Shown here: positions 8,510-20,000 of the stretch, in pieces
Layout: the number at the start of each line of letters is the position of its first letter
Position numbering within the stretch: the first letter of the stretch is position 1
Virus record (IMG/VR): IMGVR_UViG_3300046524_000073
DNA: 20,000 bases
Source of the DNA: an uncultured virus (IMG/VR IMGVR_UViG_3300046524_000073)
Lineage: Duplodnaviria; Heunggongvirae; Uroviricota; Caudoviricetes
Strand: one strand, 5' to 3'
Translations under genes and position numbers: made by a program
The notes under the pieces: generated by a model
What the model was told of the DNA's origin: nothing
Seen by the model: only the letters and a program-made list of their open reading frames with translations
The model's database searches: none

Positions 8510-9384
8510 AGGTATTTCTCCGTAGGCAACGTCGAGCTAGCAGGTGATGCCGTTCCGATCTGCCCGATGTACCCGGCAAACTTCGTCGCGTTAAACAGCG
8601 TCTCTGGCCGGAGGTACTGATTCATCTTCGGGTCCTCCAGCCATTCCCGTGTTTTGGCATCGATCACCGCTATACAGTCTTCAGGCGTTGCGCCTTCCTT
8701 CAAGCGCGCCCGGATCAACTTCAGGCTTGAGTCGACAGGCTGATACGCACGACCGGCCATTTCGTTCAAATGCTCCAGAACCTGTTTTGCAATGTCGGGC
8801 TCGCCCGACGAATGCTTTCCTTCCTGTTCCTGTTCCTGTTCCTGTTCCTGTTCCTGTTCCTGATTAGGACATGTCTTGCTGATAGCCTTTCCCGAAGCCT
8901 TTCGGTTAGGGTTACTAAAAGCCTTGTCGAAAGCCTTACCGAAACCCTCTCCGAGCGCCCATACACTGGATTTCAGGGAATCGAAAGCCTCTCGCTTCAG
9001 GTCGCATTCGGGGATCAAGTCCCACTCAGATCCCCATGAAGTGACCACGTTGGGAGATTCCGGTTTGTTGCACTTCAAGGCATTCGGTACCCATACGACC
9101 TTGGCTTTCCAGTCGGCTTTCACCATGTCTTGCTCTAAGGCTTCGGCGAAGGCTTTGTCGAAGTCTTCCAAAGACCAATCGAGTTCTTCCGCCATCGCGG
9201 CACGCCCGCTGCGAAACAAGCCGGGGATAGGGCCGGTATGAGGGCCGGTGAGAAGAAAAAGCCACAGACCTTGCCCACACGGCGGAATCGGCGTTAGCTT
9301 TTTAAACTTCTCGTCGCCCCAGATCCGAACCTCGATCTTCCGATAGCGAGATTTCTTCTCGGGCTTTCCGGCTTGCTCAGTCAC
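8506..9384 (-). CDS. phage replication initiator (O-like) with Phg_2220_C-type C-terminal domain
   Basis: SRYRKI..IWGD N-terminus, (QE)7 linker, C-terminal YLRPETLFNATKF, internal iteron-like repeats. Confidence 0.85.
   Translation of the reverse strand: MTEQAGKPEKKSRYRKIEVRIWGDEKFKKLTPIPPCGQGLWLFLLTGPHTGPIPGLFRSGRAAMAEELDWSLEDFDKAFAEALEQDMVKADWKAKVVWVPNALKCNKPESPNVVTSWGSEWDLIPECDLKREAFDSLKSSVWALGEGFGKAFDKAFSNPNRKASGKAISKTCPNQEQEQEQEQEQEQEGKHSSGEPDIAKQVLEHLNEMAGRAYQPVDSSLKLIRARLKEGATPEDCIAVIDAKTREWLEDPKMNQYLRPETLFNATKFAGYIGQIGTASPASSTLPTEKYL
8821..8862. repeat. (TTCCTG)7 perfect tandem repeat encoding (QE)7
   Basis: Seven exact 6-bp units. Confidence 0.95.
8881..8952. repeat. 12-bp-period degenerate repeats, candidate replication origin iterons
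   Basis: GATAGCCTTTCC, CGAAGCCTTTCG, GTTAGGGTTACT, AAAAGCCTTGTC, GAAAGCCTTACC, GAAACCCTCTCC inside the initiator gene. Confidence 0.6.
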
Positions 9385-9567
9385 TCACTTCCCCTTTCCA
9401 ACAAAAGCCGTAGCCGTCAAATCGCGCATATATTCGGCGATGGCGGCCTTCAATTCCTTGCCCAACTGCATCCGCACCTCGATCGCCGATGCGACGGTGA
9501 TGCGGGCTATGAGTTCGTTGATGCCGAACAACGACAGATCAAGCGCTCGAGAATCGGATGCGTTCAT
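9385..9567 (-). CDS. hypothetical phage protein
   Basis: 3' part of ORF 9385..9672. Probable start ATG 9567 (MNASDS), stop abuts the initiator start. Confidence 0.55.
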   Translation of the reverse strand: MNASDSRALDLSLFGINELIARITVASAIEVRMQLGKELKAAIAEYMRDLTATAFVGKGK

Positions 9568-10149: not shown

Positions 10150-10455
10150 CTACAGCGTTTTCTTTGCTTCTTTCGTCTTGCGACTCGCACCGCCCGTAAT
10201 GCGGGCCGGCGAACACAAAACCTCGCGCATCGTCTTCCAGTCGATGTCCGGATTAAGGTCTTCGCACCGAACTCCTGTAACCTTCTCAATCAGAACGCAT
10301 CGCTCGAGCGGAACACCCCGCGTCATCCAGTTGGCAATCGTCTGAGACTTAGTGCCCTCGCCAAGCAACTCGGCGAGCTTCGTGAGTCCGCCAGCCTTCT
10401 CGATCGCATCGCGAAGGGCTGGGGCGCCGGGGTGTGGGTTCGGTGTCTTCATCAT
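10150..10455 (-). CDS. cro: Cro/YdaS-like repressor
   Basis: AIEKAGGLTKLAELLG..SQTIANW..RGVP.ERC..IE..TGV...DLNPD. Divergent from cI. Confidence 0.88.
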   Translation of the reverse strand: MMKTPNPHPGAPALRDAIEKAGGLTKLAELLGEGTKSQTIANWMTRGVPLERCVLIEKVTGVRCEDLNPDIDWKTMREVLCSPARITGGASRKTKEAKKTL

Positions 10456-10550: not shown

Positions 10551-11294
10551 ATGGAAACAACGAATATTCCGTGGCACGTTATCCAGCAGAAGCTGGACAC
10601 GCTCACCAAGAACCAGGCATGGCTGGCGCTCCAGTTAAGGACCGGAACTAACACGATCACCAATTGGAAGAAGAGGGGTGGCGCGCCGCTGGCGCGGGTG
10701 CGTGAAATAGCCGAAGCGCTGCAGTGCAGCACAGATGAACTGCTTTCGGCTGCCGCGCAACCAACTCACATTTCAGTGGCTGCTGATGGGCCAATAAAGC
10801 GGCAAATCTCAGGCATGATTACCGATTCGCTCCAGATAGTGGGCGATATCATCGGTACGAATAACACTGAGCCAGGACCAGAAGGAACGGGACCATATCC
10901 CCTTATCTCGTGGGTTCAGGCTGGAGCCTGGGAACGAATTGTGGATAATTTTGCGCCGGGAGACGCGGAGCAGTGGATCGAGGCACCTGTAAAGGTCTCG
11001 AAGAGCTCCTACTGGCTGCGGGTATGCGGCGAGAGCATGTATGACCCAATGGGGAAGCGCTCATTCAAAGATGGCGATTTGGTTCTGGTCGAACCTCACG
11101 CATATGCGGAGAATGGATCTCTTGTAGTAGTGCGCCTGGATGACGAGTCTGAGGCCACGTTCAAACAACTCATCATTGAGGGAGGGCGAAAGTTCCTCAA
11201 GGCCCTGAATCCGAACTGGCCGAATCGTATCTTTGAGGTCAACGGCAACGCCACAATCTGCGGCGTCATCAAAGCCAAGACCGAGGTCTACTAG
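10551..11294 (+). CDS. cI: CI repressor (HTH plus S24 LexA-like peptidase)
   Basis: NQAWLALQLRTGTNTITNW HTH, PLISWVQAG cleavage site, VCGESM serine, ATFKQL lysine. Confidence 0.95.
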   Translation: METTNIPWHVIQQKLDTLTKNQAWLALQLRTGTNTITNWKKRGGAPLARVREIAEALQCSTDELLSAAAQPTHISVAADGPIKRQISGMITDSLQIVGDIIGTNNTEPGPEGTGPYPLISWVQAGAWERIVDNFAPGDAEQWIEAPVKVSKSSYWLRVCGESMYDPMGKRSFKDGDLVLVEPHAYAENGSLVVVRLDDESEATFKQLIIEGGRKFLKALNPNWPNRIFEVNGNATICGVIKAKTEVY

Positions 11295-11313
11295 GCCGCC
11301 AGCCTCCCGGAAA

Positions 11314-11438
11314 ACTCACGCAGTTTGTATATAGCCCGCCACCGAGCGGGCTTTTTTGCGTCTGTACAACACATACTCACAAACCCCTACAAACAAAAAC
11401 TCACAAAACGTTTGACATCAAACTCACACGACGTGTAC
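11314..11438. promoter_or_regulatory. OL operators
   Basis: ACTCACGCAGTTTGTAT (11314), ACTCAC half-site (11375), ACTCACAAAACGTTTGA (11399), ACTCACACGACGTGTAC (11422). Confidence 0.7.
11333..11357 (+). terminator. intrinsic terminator after cI
   Basis: AGCCCGC-CACCGA-GCGGGCT-TTTTT. Confidence 0.85.
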
Positions 11439-11441
11439 TAT
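11412..11441 (+). promoter_or_regulatory. PL promoter
   Basis: TTGACA-18 bp-TACTAT, overlapped by two operators. Confidence 0.8.
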
Positions 11442-11491
11442 TCATCCATGGAAGCAAGCAACACCGCACCAACCACTAACCGGAGAGCGAG

Positions 11492-11719
11492 ATGAGCCAG
11501 AACGCACGTACGCAGGGGATCGCAGCATTCAATGATGTAGCGAAGCCGGTGTACCAGAATCCGTACGCTTTCTCTGCAGACCCGAATTCCGACTATGAGC
11601 AGTTTCGCCTTGGATATTTCGTGGCGCGGCACGAAGGCCATCAAAGCGTTATCCAAAACATGCGCGGCGCGGAACTGCCAGCCGGATACATCAAAGGGTC
11701 GCAGCGTTACACCGCATAA
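11492..11719 (+). CDS. first PL gene, hypothetical (possible Rmf/CrpP-like motif)
   Basis: GGAGAG RBS. G..AF...NPY...F..GY pattern. Confidence 0.7.
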   Translation: MSQNARTQGIAAFNDVAKPVYQNPYAFSADPNSDYEQFRLGYFVARHEGHQSVIQNMRGAELPAGYIKGSQRYTA

Positions 11720-11760
11720 AGCTCAAAACCGCCGCAGAGCACCGCGGCAACAGGAAGGAA

Positions 11761-11863
11761 GGTCGAAACCCGGGCCAAACCTAGTGCATGAGTGCACACG
11801 CTATAGGCGAGTACCTAACAGTACGCACCCGGGTCTGAGCGTAACGCGCTCACTGACGAGACC
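11761..11863 (+). ncRNA. type II hammerhead ribozyme
   Basis: GGTC-GAAA-CCCGGG...CCCGGG-TC^-TGAGCG-taacg-CGCTCA-CTGACGA-GACC. Full conserved core, three perfectly paired stems, GUC cleavage triplet. Confidence 0.9.
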
Positions 11864-11918
11864 GTGAATAACCGCAGTAGAGGAACACAGGCGCACGGCG
11901 TCGCCTGGTGGGGCAAGA

Positions 11919-11930
11919 GATCTTTAACAA
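11919..11930 (+). promoter_or_regulatory. boxA-like antitermination element (nutL candidate)
   Basis: GATCTTTAACAA versus the boxA consensus GCTCTTTAACA. Preceded by hairpin CAGGCG/CGCCTG (11888-11907). Confidence 0.65.
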
Positions 11931-11931
11931 C

Positions 11932-12239
11932 GTAGTGGTTTGAGTTTGATCAGAGCTGGCGGCTTGTGTCCGTACGCGGAACATGACGAGCAGTTGGCCA
12001 TGATAGTCGCCAGCCCTGATCACATTCGAACCACTGCAACAGAAGGCATACCAGTAATGGCGGGGCCAACGCGCTACCCCGGAAAAGATCGGCGCCTATC
12101 AAGCCGTGGTGGTTCGGCTAGTGATCCACGGTGAGATTGATAGTGCATCCATACCGAGAGCCGACCGCGTCGGGTGTAACTCGGGTGGATGCACATGCTT
12201 CACCAGTGCGCATTTGAAGAGTGCGCAGTGGCGTGGCAT
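11932..12239 (+). ncRNA. structured non-coding block of tandem long hairpins
   Basis: 33-bp stem 11932-12037, then abutting hairpins 12096-12143, 12143-12194 and 12195-12239, with G-U pairs valid on the + strand. Confidence 0.65.
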
Positions 12240-12261
12240 TAACTAAAGGACGGAACATCTG

Positions 12262-12735
12262 ATGCTCACTGCCGAGAGACTGCGCGAGGTAATTGACTAC
12301 GACCCGGAGAGGGGAGTTCTTATCTGGAAAAAATCGGGCAACGTTGCCGGCTATGTCGGGAAAGAAGGTTATCGAAATGTGTGTGTCGATGGTCGTATGT
12401 ACCGAGAGCACAGACTCGCGTGGCTTCATGCAACAGGGAGTTGGCCCAAACAGAGCCTCGACCACATCAACGGGTCGCGGGCCGACAACAGATTAACCAA
12501 TCTGCGCGAAGCGTCTGGAATGCAAAACGCTAAAAACATGAAGCGGCCCGTCACAAACACGTCTGGACTTAAAGGTGCTAGTTGGCACAAGCGTTCAGGA
12601 AAGTGGCAGGCGGCCATCATGTGCGATCGGAAACTAAAGCATCTCGGGTTATTTGAGACTGCGGAAGAAGCGCACGCTGCCTATTGTGAGGCCGCATCAA
12701 GGCTGCACGGAGATTTTGCCTGCCTTGATCGCTGA
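12262..12735 (+). CDS. HNH homing endonuclease with C-terminal AP2 domain
   Basis: HRLAW...DHINGSRADNRLTNLR (HNH) and NTSGLKGASWHKRSGKWQAAI...HLGLFETAEEAHAAY (AP2). Confidence 0.92.
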   Translation: MLTAERLREVIDYDPERGVLIWKKSGNVAGYVGKEGYRNVCVDGRMYREHRLAWLHATGSWPKQSLDHINGSRADNRLTNLREASGMQNAKNMKRPVTNTSGLKGASWHKRSGKWQAAIMCDRKLKHLGLFETAEEAHAAYCEAASRLHGDFACLDR

Positions 12736-12745
12736 GAGTTGCAAC

Positions 12746-12905
12746 GCTGGATGTTGAGAGGATGGGAATGCGCGAGTGGTGATCGCGTACTCGGCTAGTT
12801 GTCGATGTCCCGAAGCTGGAAATTCACCCCCAGCCCCATCCCTTGAACACCCAGCACGATTCTCCTTGCATCTGCCGATTCTCGCGAGTCGGTAGCGGCG
12901 AGGGG
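12746..12905 (+). ncRNA. structured non-coding block: cloverleaf-like four-way junction plus long hairpin
   Basis: GGATGGG/CCCATCC closes three hairpins, with an extended outer stem 12746-12855. Separate hairpin 12862-12905. Confidence 0.55.
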
Positions 12906-12963
12906 TATCTAGTATCAACACAGATTAGTACTGCTACGCGCTGCGGCGCACAAAGGAACTGGA

Positions 12964-13668
12964 ATGGGATGCGACATTCACCTGTACGTTGAAAAGAGAA
13001 TCGATGGTAAGTGGATCGCTCAAGGCACGTTCACCCGCGAAGACGTCGAATCTGATGGCTCTGGCGGCTGGATCGATGGTGGGCAAGACATCTACGACGG
13101 GCGGAACTATGACCTCTTCGCAATTCTCGCCGACGTGCGGAACGGTCGCGGATTCGCTGGCGTAAAGACTGGCGAGGGATTCAACCCGATTTCTGAGCCG
13201 AGGGGTATCCCCGAAGACGCCAGCGAACAGTACAAAGAGATCGCCCAACGCTGGGATTGCGACGGCCACTCCCACTCGTATTTCACCGTCCGCGAGTTGC
13301 TTGACTACGACTGGACTCAGGAAACCGGGAAACAGGGCTGGCTCAGCATAGCCGAGTGGGAGAAATGGTCTCGATGGGATAGAGAGCGCGGCCTCGGTCC
13401 GGATTCGTGGTACGGCTTTATCGACGGCGGAGGAGTCAAGCATATCTCCACAGAGGATGCCGATGCGCTGTTCAAGGGTGTCGGTTGGTCGGATCGCGAC
13501 ACGGTTGTCGCCAAACACCCACAGACCTACGTGCAAGCCTCATGGGGAACACCGTATTACCGAGCAGCTGGCAACTTTATCGAAGAAACGTTGAGCAAAT
13601 TGCTCAAGCTGGCCGGCGGAACGAAGGGTATCGATGACGTTCGGATCGTCTTCTTCTTCGACAACTGA
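12964..13668 (+). CDS. hypothetical phage protein (MGCDIH...RNYDLFAILADVRN...RIVFFFDN type)
   Basis: 234-aa ORF with AAGGA RBS, in operon direction. Confidence 0.85.
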   Translation: MGCDIHLYVEKRIDGKWIAQGTFTREDVESDGSGGWIDGGQDIYDGRNYDLFAILADVRNGRGFAGVKTGEGFNPISEPRGIPEDASEQYKEIAQRWDCDGHSHSYFTVRELLDYDWTQETGKQGWLSIAEWEKWSRWDRERGLGPDSWYGFIDGGGVKHISTEDADALFKGVGWSDRDTVVAKHPQTYVQASWGTPYYRAAGNFIEETLSKLLKLAGGTKGIDDVRIVFFFDN

Positions 13669-13680
13669 TCGGAGGCTCAG

Positions 13681-13821
13681 ATGTTCTACAGCGACTACGG
13701 ATTTCGATCCTATTCCGCCCGGATTTCGAACTACATCATCCGATTCGTTTCGCACTATGACGAGTACGTTAATTCTAGGCTTGTTCGGAGCGTGGATCTG
13801 AATGACGTCGTCTGGTGCTGA
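13681..13821 (+). CDS. small hypothetical protein (46 aa)
   Basis: Read manually: GGAGG RBS, MFYSDYGFRSYSARISNYIIRFVSHYDEYVNSRLVRSVDLNDVVWC*. Confidence 0.6.
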   Translation: MFYSDYGFRSYSARISNYIIRFVSHYDEYVNSRLVRSVDLNDVVWC

Positions 13822-13870
13822 CTCACAAACGCATCACGAACCCACTTTGCGACTCATATACGAGGCAATC

Positions 13871-14011
13871 ATGAACATCTACCACTGGATAGCAGTCATC
13901 TTTCTCGCTGATTTGGCGCTCGCAATGACTGTGTTTCTACCGTTCGTGCGTGGCGCGGACGAACGCCGCGGTGAGGCGCCGAAGCGGAAAACTAAGTTGG
14001 GGGTGCAGTGA
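13871..14011 (+). CDS. small membrane protein
   Basis: GAGG RBS, MNIYHWIAVIFLADLALAMTVFLPFV hydrophobic stretch, basic tail. Confidence 0.65.
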   Translation: MNIYHWIAVIFLADLALAMTVFLPFVRGADERRGEAPKRKTKLGVQ

Positions 14012-14265
14012 TGGACCAGAAGACGATAGTCATTTGGGACCAAATCGGACAGGACGATATCAAGTTCGCAATTCTCGACGGCGATTACAGCGAACTGGAT
14101 GGCATCTACATCAACAACAGTCTTCAGGAGCCGGAAGACGTCAATCGCCTCTCTGATCTGATCTACGACGACAACGGACGAGAGATTGCGACGTTCGTCG
14201 ACAAGTTCCCGGTCGATCTTGTGAAAGAGGGCGCGGTCGTCATCGTTGCGGGATTCCTGCCATGA
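14008..14265 (+). CDS. hypothetical acidic protein
   Basis: 85 aa, overlap-coupled on both sides. Confidence 0.75.
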   Translation: MMDQKTIVIWDQIGQDDIKFAILDGDYSELDGIYINNSLQEPEDVNRLSDLIYDDNGREIATFVDKFPVDLVKEGAVVIVAGFLP

Positions 14266-14393
14266 AAACTGAACTAGACGAGTGGATCGAATTCACTCGC
14301 GCATGGCTTGACGAGGAAACCCGCAAGCAACGTGAGGTCGACGAGGCCGACTGGATTCGCTTCAGAGCGAAGGTGCTGGGGCCGTTTGATTGA
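14262..14393 (+). CDS. small hypothetical protein (43 aa)
   Basis: Read manually: MKTELDEWIEFTRAWLDEETRKQREVDEADWIRFRAKVLGPFD*, ATGA overlap. Confidence 0.55.
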   Translation: MKTELDEWIEFTRAWLDEETRKQREVDEADWIRFRAKVLGPFD

Positions 14394-14424
14394 ATACTAA
14401 GCGACGGCCGCTCTTAGCTTCTAT

Positions 14425-14820
14425 AAGCCGCAGCGGTGAGACGCCGCAACGAACACAGCGCCCAGCCGAAGGTGGCCTCGAAACATCGGCAGATGCAGCG
14501 TTACGGGTTTGCCAGCAATGGCTCGCGATTGCATACCGCGGCTCCTTCCCCGGCTTCTGAAAATGCTTGGCGTGGTCCCCGTCTGTGCGGACTCGACTGT
14601 TCCTTGTCGCTAGTAAAGAAGTGCGTGATGCGTTTGACAGCCGGGAAAGACCGGCGCCCTGACGAGTAGCGGATTCCCACTGCAAGAACGCCGGATAACC
14701 GGGGACCGGCCCGCTACTCGCCAGGGCCAAAGCGGATGCCATCTATTGATCCTGAGCCGTTATTGCGTAGCTAGCCGTAGGCGGAACAACTCAGGTGAAG
14801 GTGGATGCAGCGAGTAACCC
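14425..14820 (+). ncRNA. third structured non-coding block (multibranch domain, c4-like element, long hairpins)
   Basis: Stems AAGCCG/CGGCTT, GCCGG-GAAAGA-CCGGC, CCCTGACGAGTAGCGG/CCGCTACTCGCCAGGG, CCTGAG/CTCAGG. No convincing RBS-led ORF. Confidence 0.55.
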
Positions 14821-14842
14821 TGACAAACATTTCGGAGTCCAT

Positions 14843-15052
14843 ATGGGACAGCATGCAAACGCCCGTGCTTGGGCAGAGTACGAGCGCCTTGACCGTCTGA
14901 AGCAAGACGAGCAGCTAGAAAGTGATCCGCCGCTGACTGAGGAAGAAAAGGCTGCGGCATGGGATGACTCCTACTGGGAGCGGCTTGACGCTGCGGCGCG
15001 GTATGCGGGGGCGGGGCGGCATGTGTGGGGCGAGATGGGGAGGGCGGGATGA
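14843..15052 (+). CDS. hypothetical phage protein
   Basis: GGAG RBS before ATG 14843, coupled to the next gene. Confidence 0.65.
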   Translation: MGQHANARAWAEYERLDRLKQDEQLESDPPLTEEEKAAAWDDSYWERLDAAARYAGAGRHVWGEMGRAG

Positions 15053-15282
15053 AGATCATTCAACTGGCTGTGGCGCTGAATAACGAAGGCGAAGAAAGCC
15101 TGTATGCGCTCTGCGATGACGGATCGGTATTGCAGCGGCGTTGGGCATCAAAACCGAGGGCAGTCGTTGGCCGTGCTCCAGGAACTACCTATATGGATGG
15201 CTGGACTGAGGGCTGGATTCCCGTCGACGCCGGTTGGTCGGTTGCCGTAAAGCACCCCGAAGATACCCGGAGCCAATCATGA
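15049..15282 (+). CDS. hypothetical phage protein
   Basis: MKIIQLAV...LYALCDDGSV, ATGA overlaps. Confidence 0.75.
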   Translation: MKIIQLAVALNNEGEESLYALCDDGSVLQRRWASKPRAVVGRAPGTTYMDGWTEGWIPVDAGWSVAVKHPEDTRSQS

Positions 15283-15470
15283 GCGCGACATATTTCGAAG
15301 ACGACGGCGTGACGGTAGTCATATCAGACATCGCACGCCAGAAGCTCGCCACCGAGCAGCGCGACATTCGCCACGATCAGCAGAGGGCGGAGATATTGAC
15401 GTGGGGCCTGGCTATTTCGGTCGCAATCATTGCGGCGGTGGTTATTAAATATTTGATGGGGACGTCATGA
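15279..15470 (+). CDS. small protein with C-terminal transmembrane segment
   Basis: Start ATG 15279, ILTWGLAISVAIIAAVVI. Confidence 0.7.
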   Translation: MSATYFEDDGVTVVISDIARQKLATEQRDIRHDQQRAEILTWGLAISVAIIAAVVIKYLMGTS

Positions 15471-18619: not shown

Positions 18620-18648
18620 GGCCCGCTAGTTTAGGGGCCGCTTTTTTT
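18620..18648 (+). terminator. probable intrinsic terminator
   Basis: GGCCC-GCTAGTTTAG-GGGCC then GC and T7. Confidence 0.55.
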
Positions 18649-18658
18649 GGAGGTCAAT

Positions 18659-20000
18659 ATGATTGGTTATGAGGAATTTATCGCGAATAAGGGCTACGCG
18701 GATCTTCCTACTGGATTTGACTATGACGTTCCGGTCGGCCCATTGTTCGACTTCCAGGCTGCTTGCGTCAAATGGGCGCTAAAGCGCGGTCGCGCGGCGT
18801 TGTTCGAGGATACCGGTCTCGGCAAGACATTACAGCAGACCACGTGGGCGAAGTACGTCTGCGAGCACACTGGCGGCAACGTCATCATCGTGGCTCCCCT
18901 ATGCGTCGCCCAGCAGACCGTCGAGGAAGCGGGCAAGTTCGACATTGCAATCAAATACTGCCGCCACGATTCGGAAGTGGAGGCGGGCATCACGATCACG
19001 AATTACGAAATGCTTGAGCACTTCGCGCTCGATTTGTTCGTCGGCGTGGTTCTGGATGAGAGTTCGATCCTGAAATCGCACAGCAGCAAGACCCGGGCAT
19101 TCATCACGGATTCATTCCGCCGCACCCCATACAAGCTGTCATGCACGGCGACGCCTAGCCCTAACGACTGGATGGAGCTAGGCAATCAAGCGGAATTTCT
19201 CGGCGTGATGAACGCTGTCGAAATGCTGTCTACGTTCTTCACGCACGATGGCGGCGATACGGGCAACTGGCGTCTGAAGGGTCACGGCAAGGTCAAGTTT
19301 TGGGAGTGGATGGCGACGTGGGCAGTCTGTATCCGCAGCCCTGCCGACCTTGGTTTCGACGGCTCGCGCTATCTCCTGCCGCCGCTCGAACTCGTTGAGC
19401 ATGTGGTGGAGAGTGATGCCGCGCCAGAAGGACAGCTTTTCACGATCATCGCTCAAAGCCTGACGGAGCGCCGGCAAGCGAAGAAAAGCACGATCGACCA
19501 GCGTATCGAGCTTGCAGCGAGCATCGCGAACAGCACCGACGAGCCGGTCATTGTCTGGTGCCACCTGAATGAGGAAAGCGAGCGCCTGACAAAAGCTATT
19601 CCCGGCGCCGTCGAAGTGACTGGCTCAATGAAGCCCGAGCAGAAGGAAGCAAACATCATGGCGTTCGTCCATGGCGAGGCGCGGGTGATTGTCAGCAAGC
19701 CGTCCATCATGGGTTTCGGATTAAACCTCCAGCACGTCTGCCGGCGCATGGTGTTCGCCAGCATGGATGACAGTTTCGAGTCCTATTACCAGGCGGTGCG
19801 CCGCTGCTATCGGTTTGGGCAGAACCGCCGCGTGCTGGCACACATCATCACCGCCGATACCGAGGGCGCCGTGAAAACCAACATCGCCCGCAAGCAGGCG
19901 CAGAGCGACGCCATGGCGGCCGAAATGGTGGCCCTGATGCGCGAGATCACCAAGAAACAGATTGAAGGCGCCCGGAGCGGGACCGAGGCTTACCGTCCGA
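18659..20000 (+). CDS. SNF2-related SF2 helicase (partial, runs off the window)
   Basis: Absent from the ORF track, consistent with no stop inside the window. Read manually: GGAGG RBS, MIGYEEFI...LFDFQ...EDTGLGKT, VLDESSILK, CTATPSPND, FGLNLQ, QAVRRCYRFGQ. Confidence 0.9.
   Translation, partial: MIGYEEFIANKGYADLPTGFDYDVPVGPLFDFQAACVKWALKRGRAALFEDTGLGKTLQQTTWAKYVCEHTGGNVIIVAPLCVAQQTVEEAGKFDIAIKYCRHDSEVEAGITITNYEMLEHFALDLFVGVVLDESSILKSHSSKTRAFITDSFRRTPYKLSCTATPSPNDWMELGNQAEFLGVMNAVEMLSTFFTHDGGDTGNWRLKGHGKVKFWEWMATWAVCIRSPADLGFDGSRYLLPPLELVEHVVESDAAPEGQLFTIIAQSLTERRQAKKSTIDQRIELAASIANSTDEPVIVWCHLNEESERLTKAIPGAVEVTGSMKPEQKEANIMAFVHGEARVIVSKPSIMGFGLNLQHVCRRMVFASMDDSFESYYQAVRRCYRFGQNRRVLAHIITADTEGAVKTNIARKQAQSDAMAAEMVALMREITKKQIEGARSGTEAYRP

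Follow-up and report, generated by a model that had tools for sequence, protein, structure and literature searches.

What do the long stretches between genes in the early left operon of a phage contain, and what might become of their transcript? The question is raised by a 20,000-nucleotide (nt) stretch of DNA, hereafter the window, from the uncultured virus IMGVR_UViG_3300046524_000073 (Caudoviricetes), which by gene content is a lambdoid phage or prophage of Paraburkholderia type. Within its repressor-controlled leftward operon lie three gaps (block 1, 11720-12261, 542 nt; block 2, 12736-12963, 228 nt; block 3, 14394-14842, 449 nt) that sum to 1,219 nt. An initial annotation of the window had placed these gaps correctly, had described them as largely filled with stems, and had suggested that the transcript from the putative leftward promoter PL may be a precursor from which several small RNAs are cut. 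No open reading frame (ORF) of a known family was found inside the three gaps, where only ORFs of 21-77 codons with weak Shine-Dalgarno (SD) sequences occur. The gaps hold conserved, covarying RNA modules and an intact ribozyme core; boxA is enriched in arrays of this kind, their cargo has been exchanged, and an endonuclease gene has been inserted among the modules. The reading we favour, at a probability of about 0.6, is that the PL transcript is a precursor comparable to that of a ribosomal RNA (rRNA) operon, protected by Nus factors without a phage N protein and cut by RNase III and a hammerhead ribozyme into several RNAs.

Related loci carry the same modules

The closest named relatives of the window are prophages in Paraburkholderia and other Burkholderiales, and matching DNA comes from rhizosphere metagenomes. 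Comparison was made with 28 non-identical loci, hand-picked from BLAST tables after protein-anchored and motif scans. All 28 carry, near PL, a non-coding array about 250-1,300 nt long; in most, a second array site precedes the ORF 14843 homologue, and the same modules return across loci in varying order and number. With boundaries set by hand, modules with homologues span 494 of 542, 197 of 228 and 426 of 449 nt of the three gaps, in agreement with the earlier description. Features given below are on the + strand unless noted otherwise.

A type II hammerhead and a boxA

Block 1 carries a type II hammerhead (11761..11864) with a GUC at 11833-11835 and a predicted cut after 11835. It is laid out as GGUC-GAAA-stem III-GUC-stem I-CUGACGA-GACC, and has the CUGANGA, GAAA and NUH elements, the three stems and the open stem II of its class. 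Stem II has 4 base pairs (bp), and the stem III domain is 63 nt long, as against 10-24 nt in relatives. Eight distinct copies were found among related loci, all with an invariant core. All 13 counted pairs are intact in the seven copies that were aligned and the six stem-I pairs all differ on both sides, a score reached by none of 500 shuffles. Seven of the eight copies lie 48-59 nt 5' of a boxA. A pseudoknot between loop I and the 3' tail, common but not universal, was sought by eye, and no clear 4-bp pairing was seen.

What remains of a second hammerhead is a degenerate 5' half (11720..11752) that abuts the intact one; it has retained its stem III hairpin, which corresponds to stem III of an intact hammerhead in locus L241, and has lost GUCGAAAC. 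In locus L258 a dead half-hammerhead is followed by an ORF and then by an intact copy, and loose ends occur at 11752. Because an ORF separates the two copies in L258 and in other runs, a gene flanked by hammerheads has apparently been lost from the window phage. Type II hammerheads of prophages (RF02276; Perreault et al. 2011, PMC3088659) flank genes and were proposed to cut transcripts to operon- or gene-length mRNAs. They share with the window the core, the GUC site, the open stem II and the setting in a prophage operon; the window copy differs in its sub-cut-off score, 4-bp stem II, 63-nt stem III and fixed place before a boxA-led array.

Downstream, a conserved leader with two small hairpins (11871..11930) ends in the boxA GATCTTTAACAA (11919-11930). 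Its letters are identical to those of multi-copy host sites, presumably the leaders and spacers of rrn operons; the E. coli consensus is given as UGCUCUUUAACA (PMC13753749). Among 20 arrays that had not been found by the boxA pattern, some of them found with neighbouring block-1 DNA, 15 contain the strict pattern, as against 2 matches in 256,822 nt outside arrays. A boxA scan of viral contigs gave 40 matches, mostly unrelated, and 14 of 20 boxA-like genomic sites were without modules.

According to three published sources, boxA is enough for the rrn complex to load, this complex blocks Rho and helps RNase III-cleaved helices to fold, and in rrn leaders and boxA-led CRISPR arrays, too, a long cargo-bracketing helix comes after boxA (PMC13753749, PMC10250234, PMC4807359). 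The window departs from an rrn leader in that its cargo is 30-140 nt long, variable, interleaved with mRNA and phage-borne. No boxB hairpin follows the window boxA, and a 31-bp stalk begins at once. A boxA early in the PL transcript is common to the window and to nutL of phage lambda (nut: PMC10250234). The window differs from nutL and N in that a boxB-like hairpin after boxA is missing and that no N-like gene was found, N proteins being divergent and no match having been obtained in Pfam, PHROGs or NCBIfam. An RNase III-type stem early in the PL transcript, rIII in lambda, is a further common feature.

Long stalks bracket exchangeable cargo

The boxA stalk (11931..12037) has 31 bp, two fewer than first annotated, and a loop of 35 nt; members of its family in relatives have 27-32 bp and loops of about 32-142 nt. 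A terminal stalk in block 3 (14655..14728; GCCCUGA...AGGGC) has 16-19 bp and an exchangeable loop, and a third family closes the cloverleaf cassette described below. Each 5' arm of the three families was paired with its own and with foreign 3' arms, and the own arm paired better in 52 of 56 comparisons for the boxA stalk, 125 of 132 for the cloverleaf stalk and 108 of 110 for the terminal stalk, counts that include the mis-anchored L060a. Stalk lengths of 16-32 bp and a layout that brackets cargo suggest substrates of RNase III. The letters GCCCUGA...AGGGC were also considered as a lambda boxB, which they resemble; they continue as a long stalk, and the candidate was rejected.

Arms are kept and loops replaced at four contig joints (11961>12008 in the boxA stalk, 12766>12813 and 12773>12830 in the cloverleaf cassette, and 14739>14806 in the last cassette of block 3). 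The joints come from contigs of two of four other rhizosphere runs, at a likeness of 85 and with intervening letters mostly not known; the same contigs skip ORF 12964. Blocks 1 and 2 are separated by an HNH-AP2 homing endonuclease gene (12262..12735), which is read as an insertion splitting one array because block-1 and block-2 modules share one ORF-free stretch in L083. A 15-nt stalk arm, observed in L123, overlaps its final codons. No stalk around the gene could be folded, and its lack of cover in the four runs counts as no evidence. HNH or GIY-YIG genes adjoin arrays in four of five other ORFs checked, in addition to the window.

Block-1 DNA was found in 5 of 396 genomes, block-3 DNA in 7 of 213 (one a coding chance match) and in 2 of 69, and a cloverleaf model, R1, matched 1 of 151 genomes in an order-wide sample in which few candidates were scored. 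Since so few genomes match, the arrays are patchy, not ubiquitous. For array modules of L123 (4337-4422, 3840-3931), matches lie in unannotated DNA of both Bordetella phage PHB04 and 70-kb Salmonella and Klebsiella phages; modules therefore cross phage groups.

Cargo modules

After the boxA stalk lies an H-type pseudoknot module (12047..12100), not in Rfam, with a GUAA hairpin (12054). It consists of nested stems and a pseudoknot helix, and four pairs covary between two lineages; the helix has changed again in a third lineage, and at one of its positions three pair types all preserve the pairing. Hairpins at 12079 and 14641 had been considered related; 12079 belongs to the pseudoknot, and homologues break the pairing once proposed for it. 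Three stems follow (12098-12143, 12144-12194 and 12195-12240), the middle one long, with a conserved GAR / G[UA]GUA internal loop and seven distinct copies.

In block 2, a cloverleaf cassette (12746..12855) is closed by an 18-bp stalk, on which a T-like hairpin is stacked; a D-like hairpin and a variable middle come before the T-like hairpin. Eight of its 14 pairs change on both sides in nine sequences, and R1 finds previously unseen copies in L292, L082, L242, two further Paraburkholderia genomes and phi644-2. The annotated cloverleaf is recovered as a cassette and not as a tRNA: neither ARAGORN nor Rfam calls one, and the T-like loop, AAAUUCACCC, is not canonical. A conserved long hairpin (12858..12910) comes next, with 6 of 23 pairs changed on both sides in five sequences. 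In the cultured phage phi644-2 (L312 3052-3893) an unannotated 840-nt gap contains a promoter-like site, a boxA and an internal-loop stem, and the cloverleaf cassette match in it scores 79.9 bits.

The 5' part of block 3 (14399..14452) has a T-loop-like hairpin (UGAGA with a 2-nt bulge) whose stem covaries. It is followed by a multi-helix domain of ~180 nt (14453..14632), represented by seven distinct sequences and including a GCAA hairpin (14512-14521); 11 of its 41 pairs change on both sides, a result equalled by 0 of 500 shuffles. The GCAA loop at 14515, like the GUAA loop at 12054, the hammerhead and the boxA, is present as annotated. A hairpin GGGAAAGA (14635..14655) occurs verbatim in 17 viral stretches of unrelated phages. 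The 24-mer GTTTGACAGCCGGGAAAGACCGGC (window 14632-14655; L001-L017) is exact in unrelated phages of 37-57% GC, its copies lie in non-coding and sometimes tRNA-like contexts, and no Rfam family was seen for it. A last cassette (14729..14826), with its inner part replaced in relatives, precedes ORF 14843.

Searches with known families returned little. Rfam gave two chance matches in the window, neither reaching threshold, and ARAGORN no tRNA; in 20 related loci Rfam gave one tRNA match at gathering level. L317, a distant block-3 relative, matches Proteo-phage-1 RNA (RF03044) at 27.2 bits (E 1.8e-4 in a 56-kb record) over the part corresponding to about 14425-14497. This lies below the cut-off of 42 bits, and the window itself has no match at E<=10, so that the weak resemblance is that of L317 only. 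Twister, pistol, hepatitis delta virus (HDV) and group I consensuses, compared by eye, did not fit. ARAGORN reports tRNA-??? folds in the PL arrays of L067 (6318-6390), L241 (4054-4141) and L272 (4135-4232). These three, among 25 loci scanned, have a true T-loop and an aberrant or undefined anticodon loop, and are candidate tRNA decoys.

The antisense RNAs that had also been envisaged found no cis target within the window. Eight of 10 modules scanned against the window were at shuffle level and two at 1/30; those two were a long-range match of the kind rejected below and a same-sense match. Long-range pairings of 12867-12879 with 14485-14497 (13/13) and of 13826-13841 with 14621-14636 (15/16) are absent in 3 of 3 relatives (3-6 mismatches); the complements are also broken by variants at 12868 and 14494, and both segments lie within local covarying helices. 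A C4/CI-type immunity RNA was rejected as well, with no Rfam match and the 13- and 16-nt matches missing in 3 of 3 relatives.

Folding statistics and strand

Whole blocks were folded on the + strand against 40 dinucleotide shuffles per block. Blocks 1 and 2 gave z scores of -5.2 and -4.8, with 0 of 40 shuffles as stable for either; five coding controls on the + strand ranged from +0.5 to -1.8, and cI on the minus strand reached -3.1. Among smaller pieces, the boxA stalk gave -7.05, 12135-12205 -4.0, the cloverleaf region -4.1 and 14630-14740, inside block 3, -5.0; six of the 14 pieces folded were no better than -0.2. G-U pairs outnumber A-C oppositions 17 to 7 in the helices of the window. The array is assigned to the + strand because the hammerhead, the boxA and the tRNA folds set the strand, the G-U argument being weak.

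A proposed route from transcript to RNAs

Under the precursor reading, transcription from PL would begin on release of the repressor. The hammerhead, to judge from its intact core, would then cut itself co-transcriptionally ~85 nt 5' of boxA and so detach the first ORF from the array. By analogy with rrn operons and CRISPR arrays, boxA would recruit host NusB-S10, NusA, NusG and SuhB without phage N; the loaded Nus complex would keep Rho off ~1.2 kb of untranslated RNA and may assist annealing of the next stalk. The 16-32-bp stalks would be RNase III sites, as in dicBF and the leader-trailer helices of rRNA, which would punctuate the message, and cutting there would yield individual RNAs from the loops and from the modules in between. 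Conserved arms would permit exchange of cargo by recombination, a pattern visible in the sequences; homing endonuclease genes insert in the arrays. The cargo, made up of the pseudoknot, the cloverleaf and the multi-helix domain and, in relatives, aberrant tRNA folds, would most likely act in trans on host proteins or RNAs early in infection, and action by shape fits better than antisense because the fold and the letters of tertiary motifs are conserved. Of the precursor first annotated, the ribozyme, the covarying structure and the RNase III-sized stalks with exchangeable loops have been found, whereas cleavage and its products are predicted.

Objections and alternative explanations

Several observations weigh against this interpretation. 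The window hammerhead has no Rfam match and falls short of the gathering criterion of RF02276, the L258 hammerhead scores 20.4 bits against a cut-off of 37, and the long stem III insert could slow the window ribozyme. Five of the 20 arrays have no strict boxA in their first 320 nt, three of them having one at the edge or a near match. Taken whole, block 3 is no more stably folded than its shuffles (z +0.1; 21 of 40 as stable), so that the folding expected against shuffled controls held for blocks 1 and 2 and failed there. The covariation that the initial annotation had named as a test was found in the hammerhead, the stalks, the pseudoknot, the cloverleaf and the block-3 domain; the structures of the last two were derived from the same alignments used for covariation, the sequences are few and related (three lineages for the pseudoknot), and the shuffle control ignores relatedness. 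G-U pairs, formerly taken as a strand signal, are as frequent as A-C in 27 homologous stalks (42 vs 39, p 0.82), which show no strand bias. Finally, a genome-wide search of K-12 with R1 does not report the Qin stem discussed below.

A narrower account would let the hammerhead and stalks act only in cis, dividing the early mRNA into gene-sized pieces and setting their stability and translation, with loops that have no task. The gene-flanking hammerheads of prophages and their proposed operon- or gene-length products (PMC3088659) agree with this, and the terminal stalk and the end of block 2 adjoin start codons on the 5' side in relatives. Arrays of 0.3-1.3 kb, however, line up many tandem modules without an intervening gene, and the pseudoknot, cloverleaf arms and tRNA folds exceed the needs of a cut site; we consider this account rather unlikely. 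The RNA-based antitermination of the initial annotation fits in its host-type form, through boxA. A put-like device made of RNA only, in which boxA, stalk and pseudoknot would modify RNA polymerase to pass left-operon terminators and processing would be incidental, is a rival that we judge improbable. The place of boxA near the array start, often right after PL, and the failure to find an N-like gene speak for it; yet no terminator-like site was found on the + strand from 11358 to 15420, the element after boxA varies among phages (stalk, pseudoknot or other modules), and modules appear again in block 3, 2.7 kb downstream, where boxA is absent.

The arrays might also serve as DNA, their inverted repeats being a cassette platform for recombination and endonuclease-gene homing and not functional RNA. 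Loops swapped inside conserved arms, the even G-U count of the stalks and the adjoining HNH/GIY-YIG genes would be expected of such a platform, but the hammerhead core, boxA, pseudoknot and tRNA T-loops make sense only as + strand RNA, and the idea is very improbable. Least credible is that the gaps are small unannotated ORFs or fold by chance: the 21-77-codon ORFs and the shuffle-like folding of block 3 can be cited for it, but SD sequences are weak, in relatives loops are swapped and indels come in any length, and pairs covary. Even taken together, the DNA-level and coding explanations are highly improbable.

Relation to dicBF and other described systems

The initial claim of an undescribed system is too strong, as the dicBF intercistronic region, the nearest described system, and the prophage hammerheads are published precedents; the modules and the logic of the array were not found described. 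In two published accounts, the dicBF region of the E. coli prophage Qin is processed out of a repressor-controlled polycistronic RNA by RNases III and E (bioRxiv 2023.04.14.536235; PMC5069750). The stem that follows dicF in K-12 is laid out like the window cassette: its stalk is 20 bp long, its D-like hairpin has AAUGCG, its middle varies, and a T-like hairpin stacks on the stalk. Against 5 kb of the K-12 Qin region, R1 ranked this stem best of 17 matches (16.5 bits, E 0.0034). Because R1 misses it genome-wide, homology with dicBF amounts to the layout and one weak score. PMC5069750 credits RNase III with the 72-nt DicF end, which would map to 2954, within the 5' arm of this stem (2944-2963).

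Like the dicF locus, the window has a long non-coding region, a repressor-controlled early operon and RNase III-sized stems. Unlike dicBF (ydfC-dicF-dicB), it has no DicF-like small RNA with an intrinsic terminator, by Rfam and terminator scans of the window, and it adds a hammerhead, a boxA, a pseudoknot, additional stalks and a further array site; the phage is one of Betaproteobacteria, and its cargo is exchanged among phages. The window array would work like dicBF; that it belongs with dicF-type loci is only partly shown. In a survey at the level of abstracts, boxA-led RNA arrays in Burkholderiales phages were not found described, and older dicF papers may bear on novelty; the accessible parts of PMC5737381 and of the Pas/STnc100 preprint hold no description of such arrays.

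Operon context and neighbouring features

Library scans of window proteins place cro at 10150-10455 (- strand) and a cI-type repressor (helix-turn-helix and S24 peptidase) at 10551..11294, followed by a terminator (11333-11358). The PL promoter-like site TTGACA-18-TACTAT (11412..11441) has the top promoter score within the window, and ACTCAC repeats at 11375, 11398 and 11421 are putative operators. The first ORF (11492..11719, 75 aa) is without a family and is missing or different in relatives. Downstream of PL, small ORFs are followed by Erf, SSB, Gp157 and an exonuclease. Cultured phages compared with 11300-15100 gave only coding matches and one terminator match.

Small family-less ORFs at 13681-13821, 13871-14011, 14262-14393 and 14843-15052 are kept among relatives; neighbours of such ORFs in L067, L080 and L242 have a pilin-like N-terminus, and the window has none. 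By eye, an open-ended ORF 3' of the exonuclease (18647-19999) resembles SNF2/helicase proteins, and L082 has a Doc/Fic-like gene pair between cI and PL (8920-9490). The segment 16981-17100 on the - strand, within the SSB gene, folds with a z of -6.3 (30 shuffles).

Implications for temperate phages

Early-operon gaps of lambdoid prophages stay unannotated, the 840-nt gap of phi644-2 being an example. Tentatively, the arrays may be exchangeable 'RNA morons', run in rRNA style without N in the early operon of proteobacterial temperate phages, whose phage-specific structured RNAs (tRNA-shaped, pseudoknotted or T-loop-bearing), several of uncatalogued classes, would act on host defence or translation proteins as decoys or inhibitors; if true, they would be an RNA counterpart to early anti-defence protein islands. 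At least three modules could be put to the test as new RNA families: the pseudoknot, the cloverleaf cassette and the block-3 domain. If the gaps are multi-RNA precursors, dicF would be one case of a general design, phages without N may run their early transcription on the host rRNA machinery, and phages would own a variable RNA toolkit that protein-centred screens have missed.

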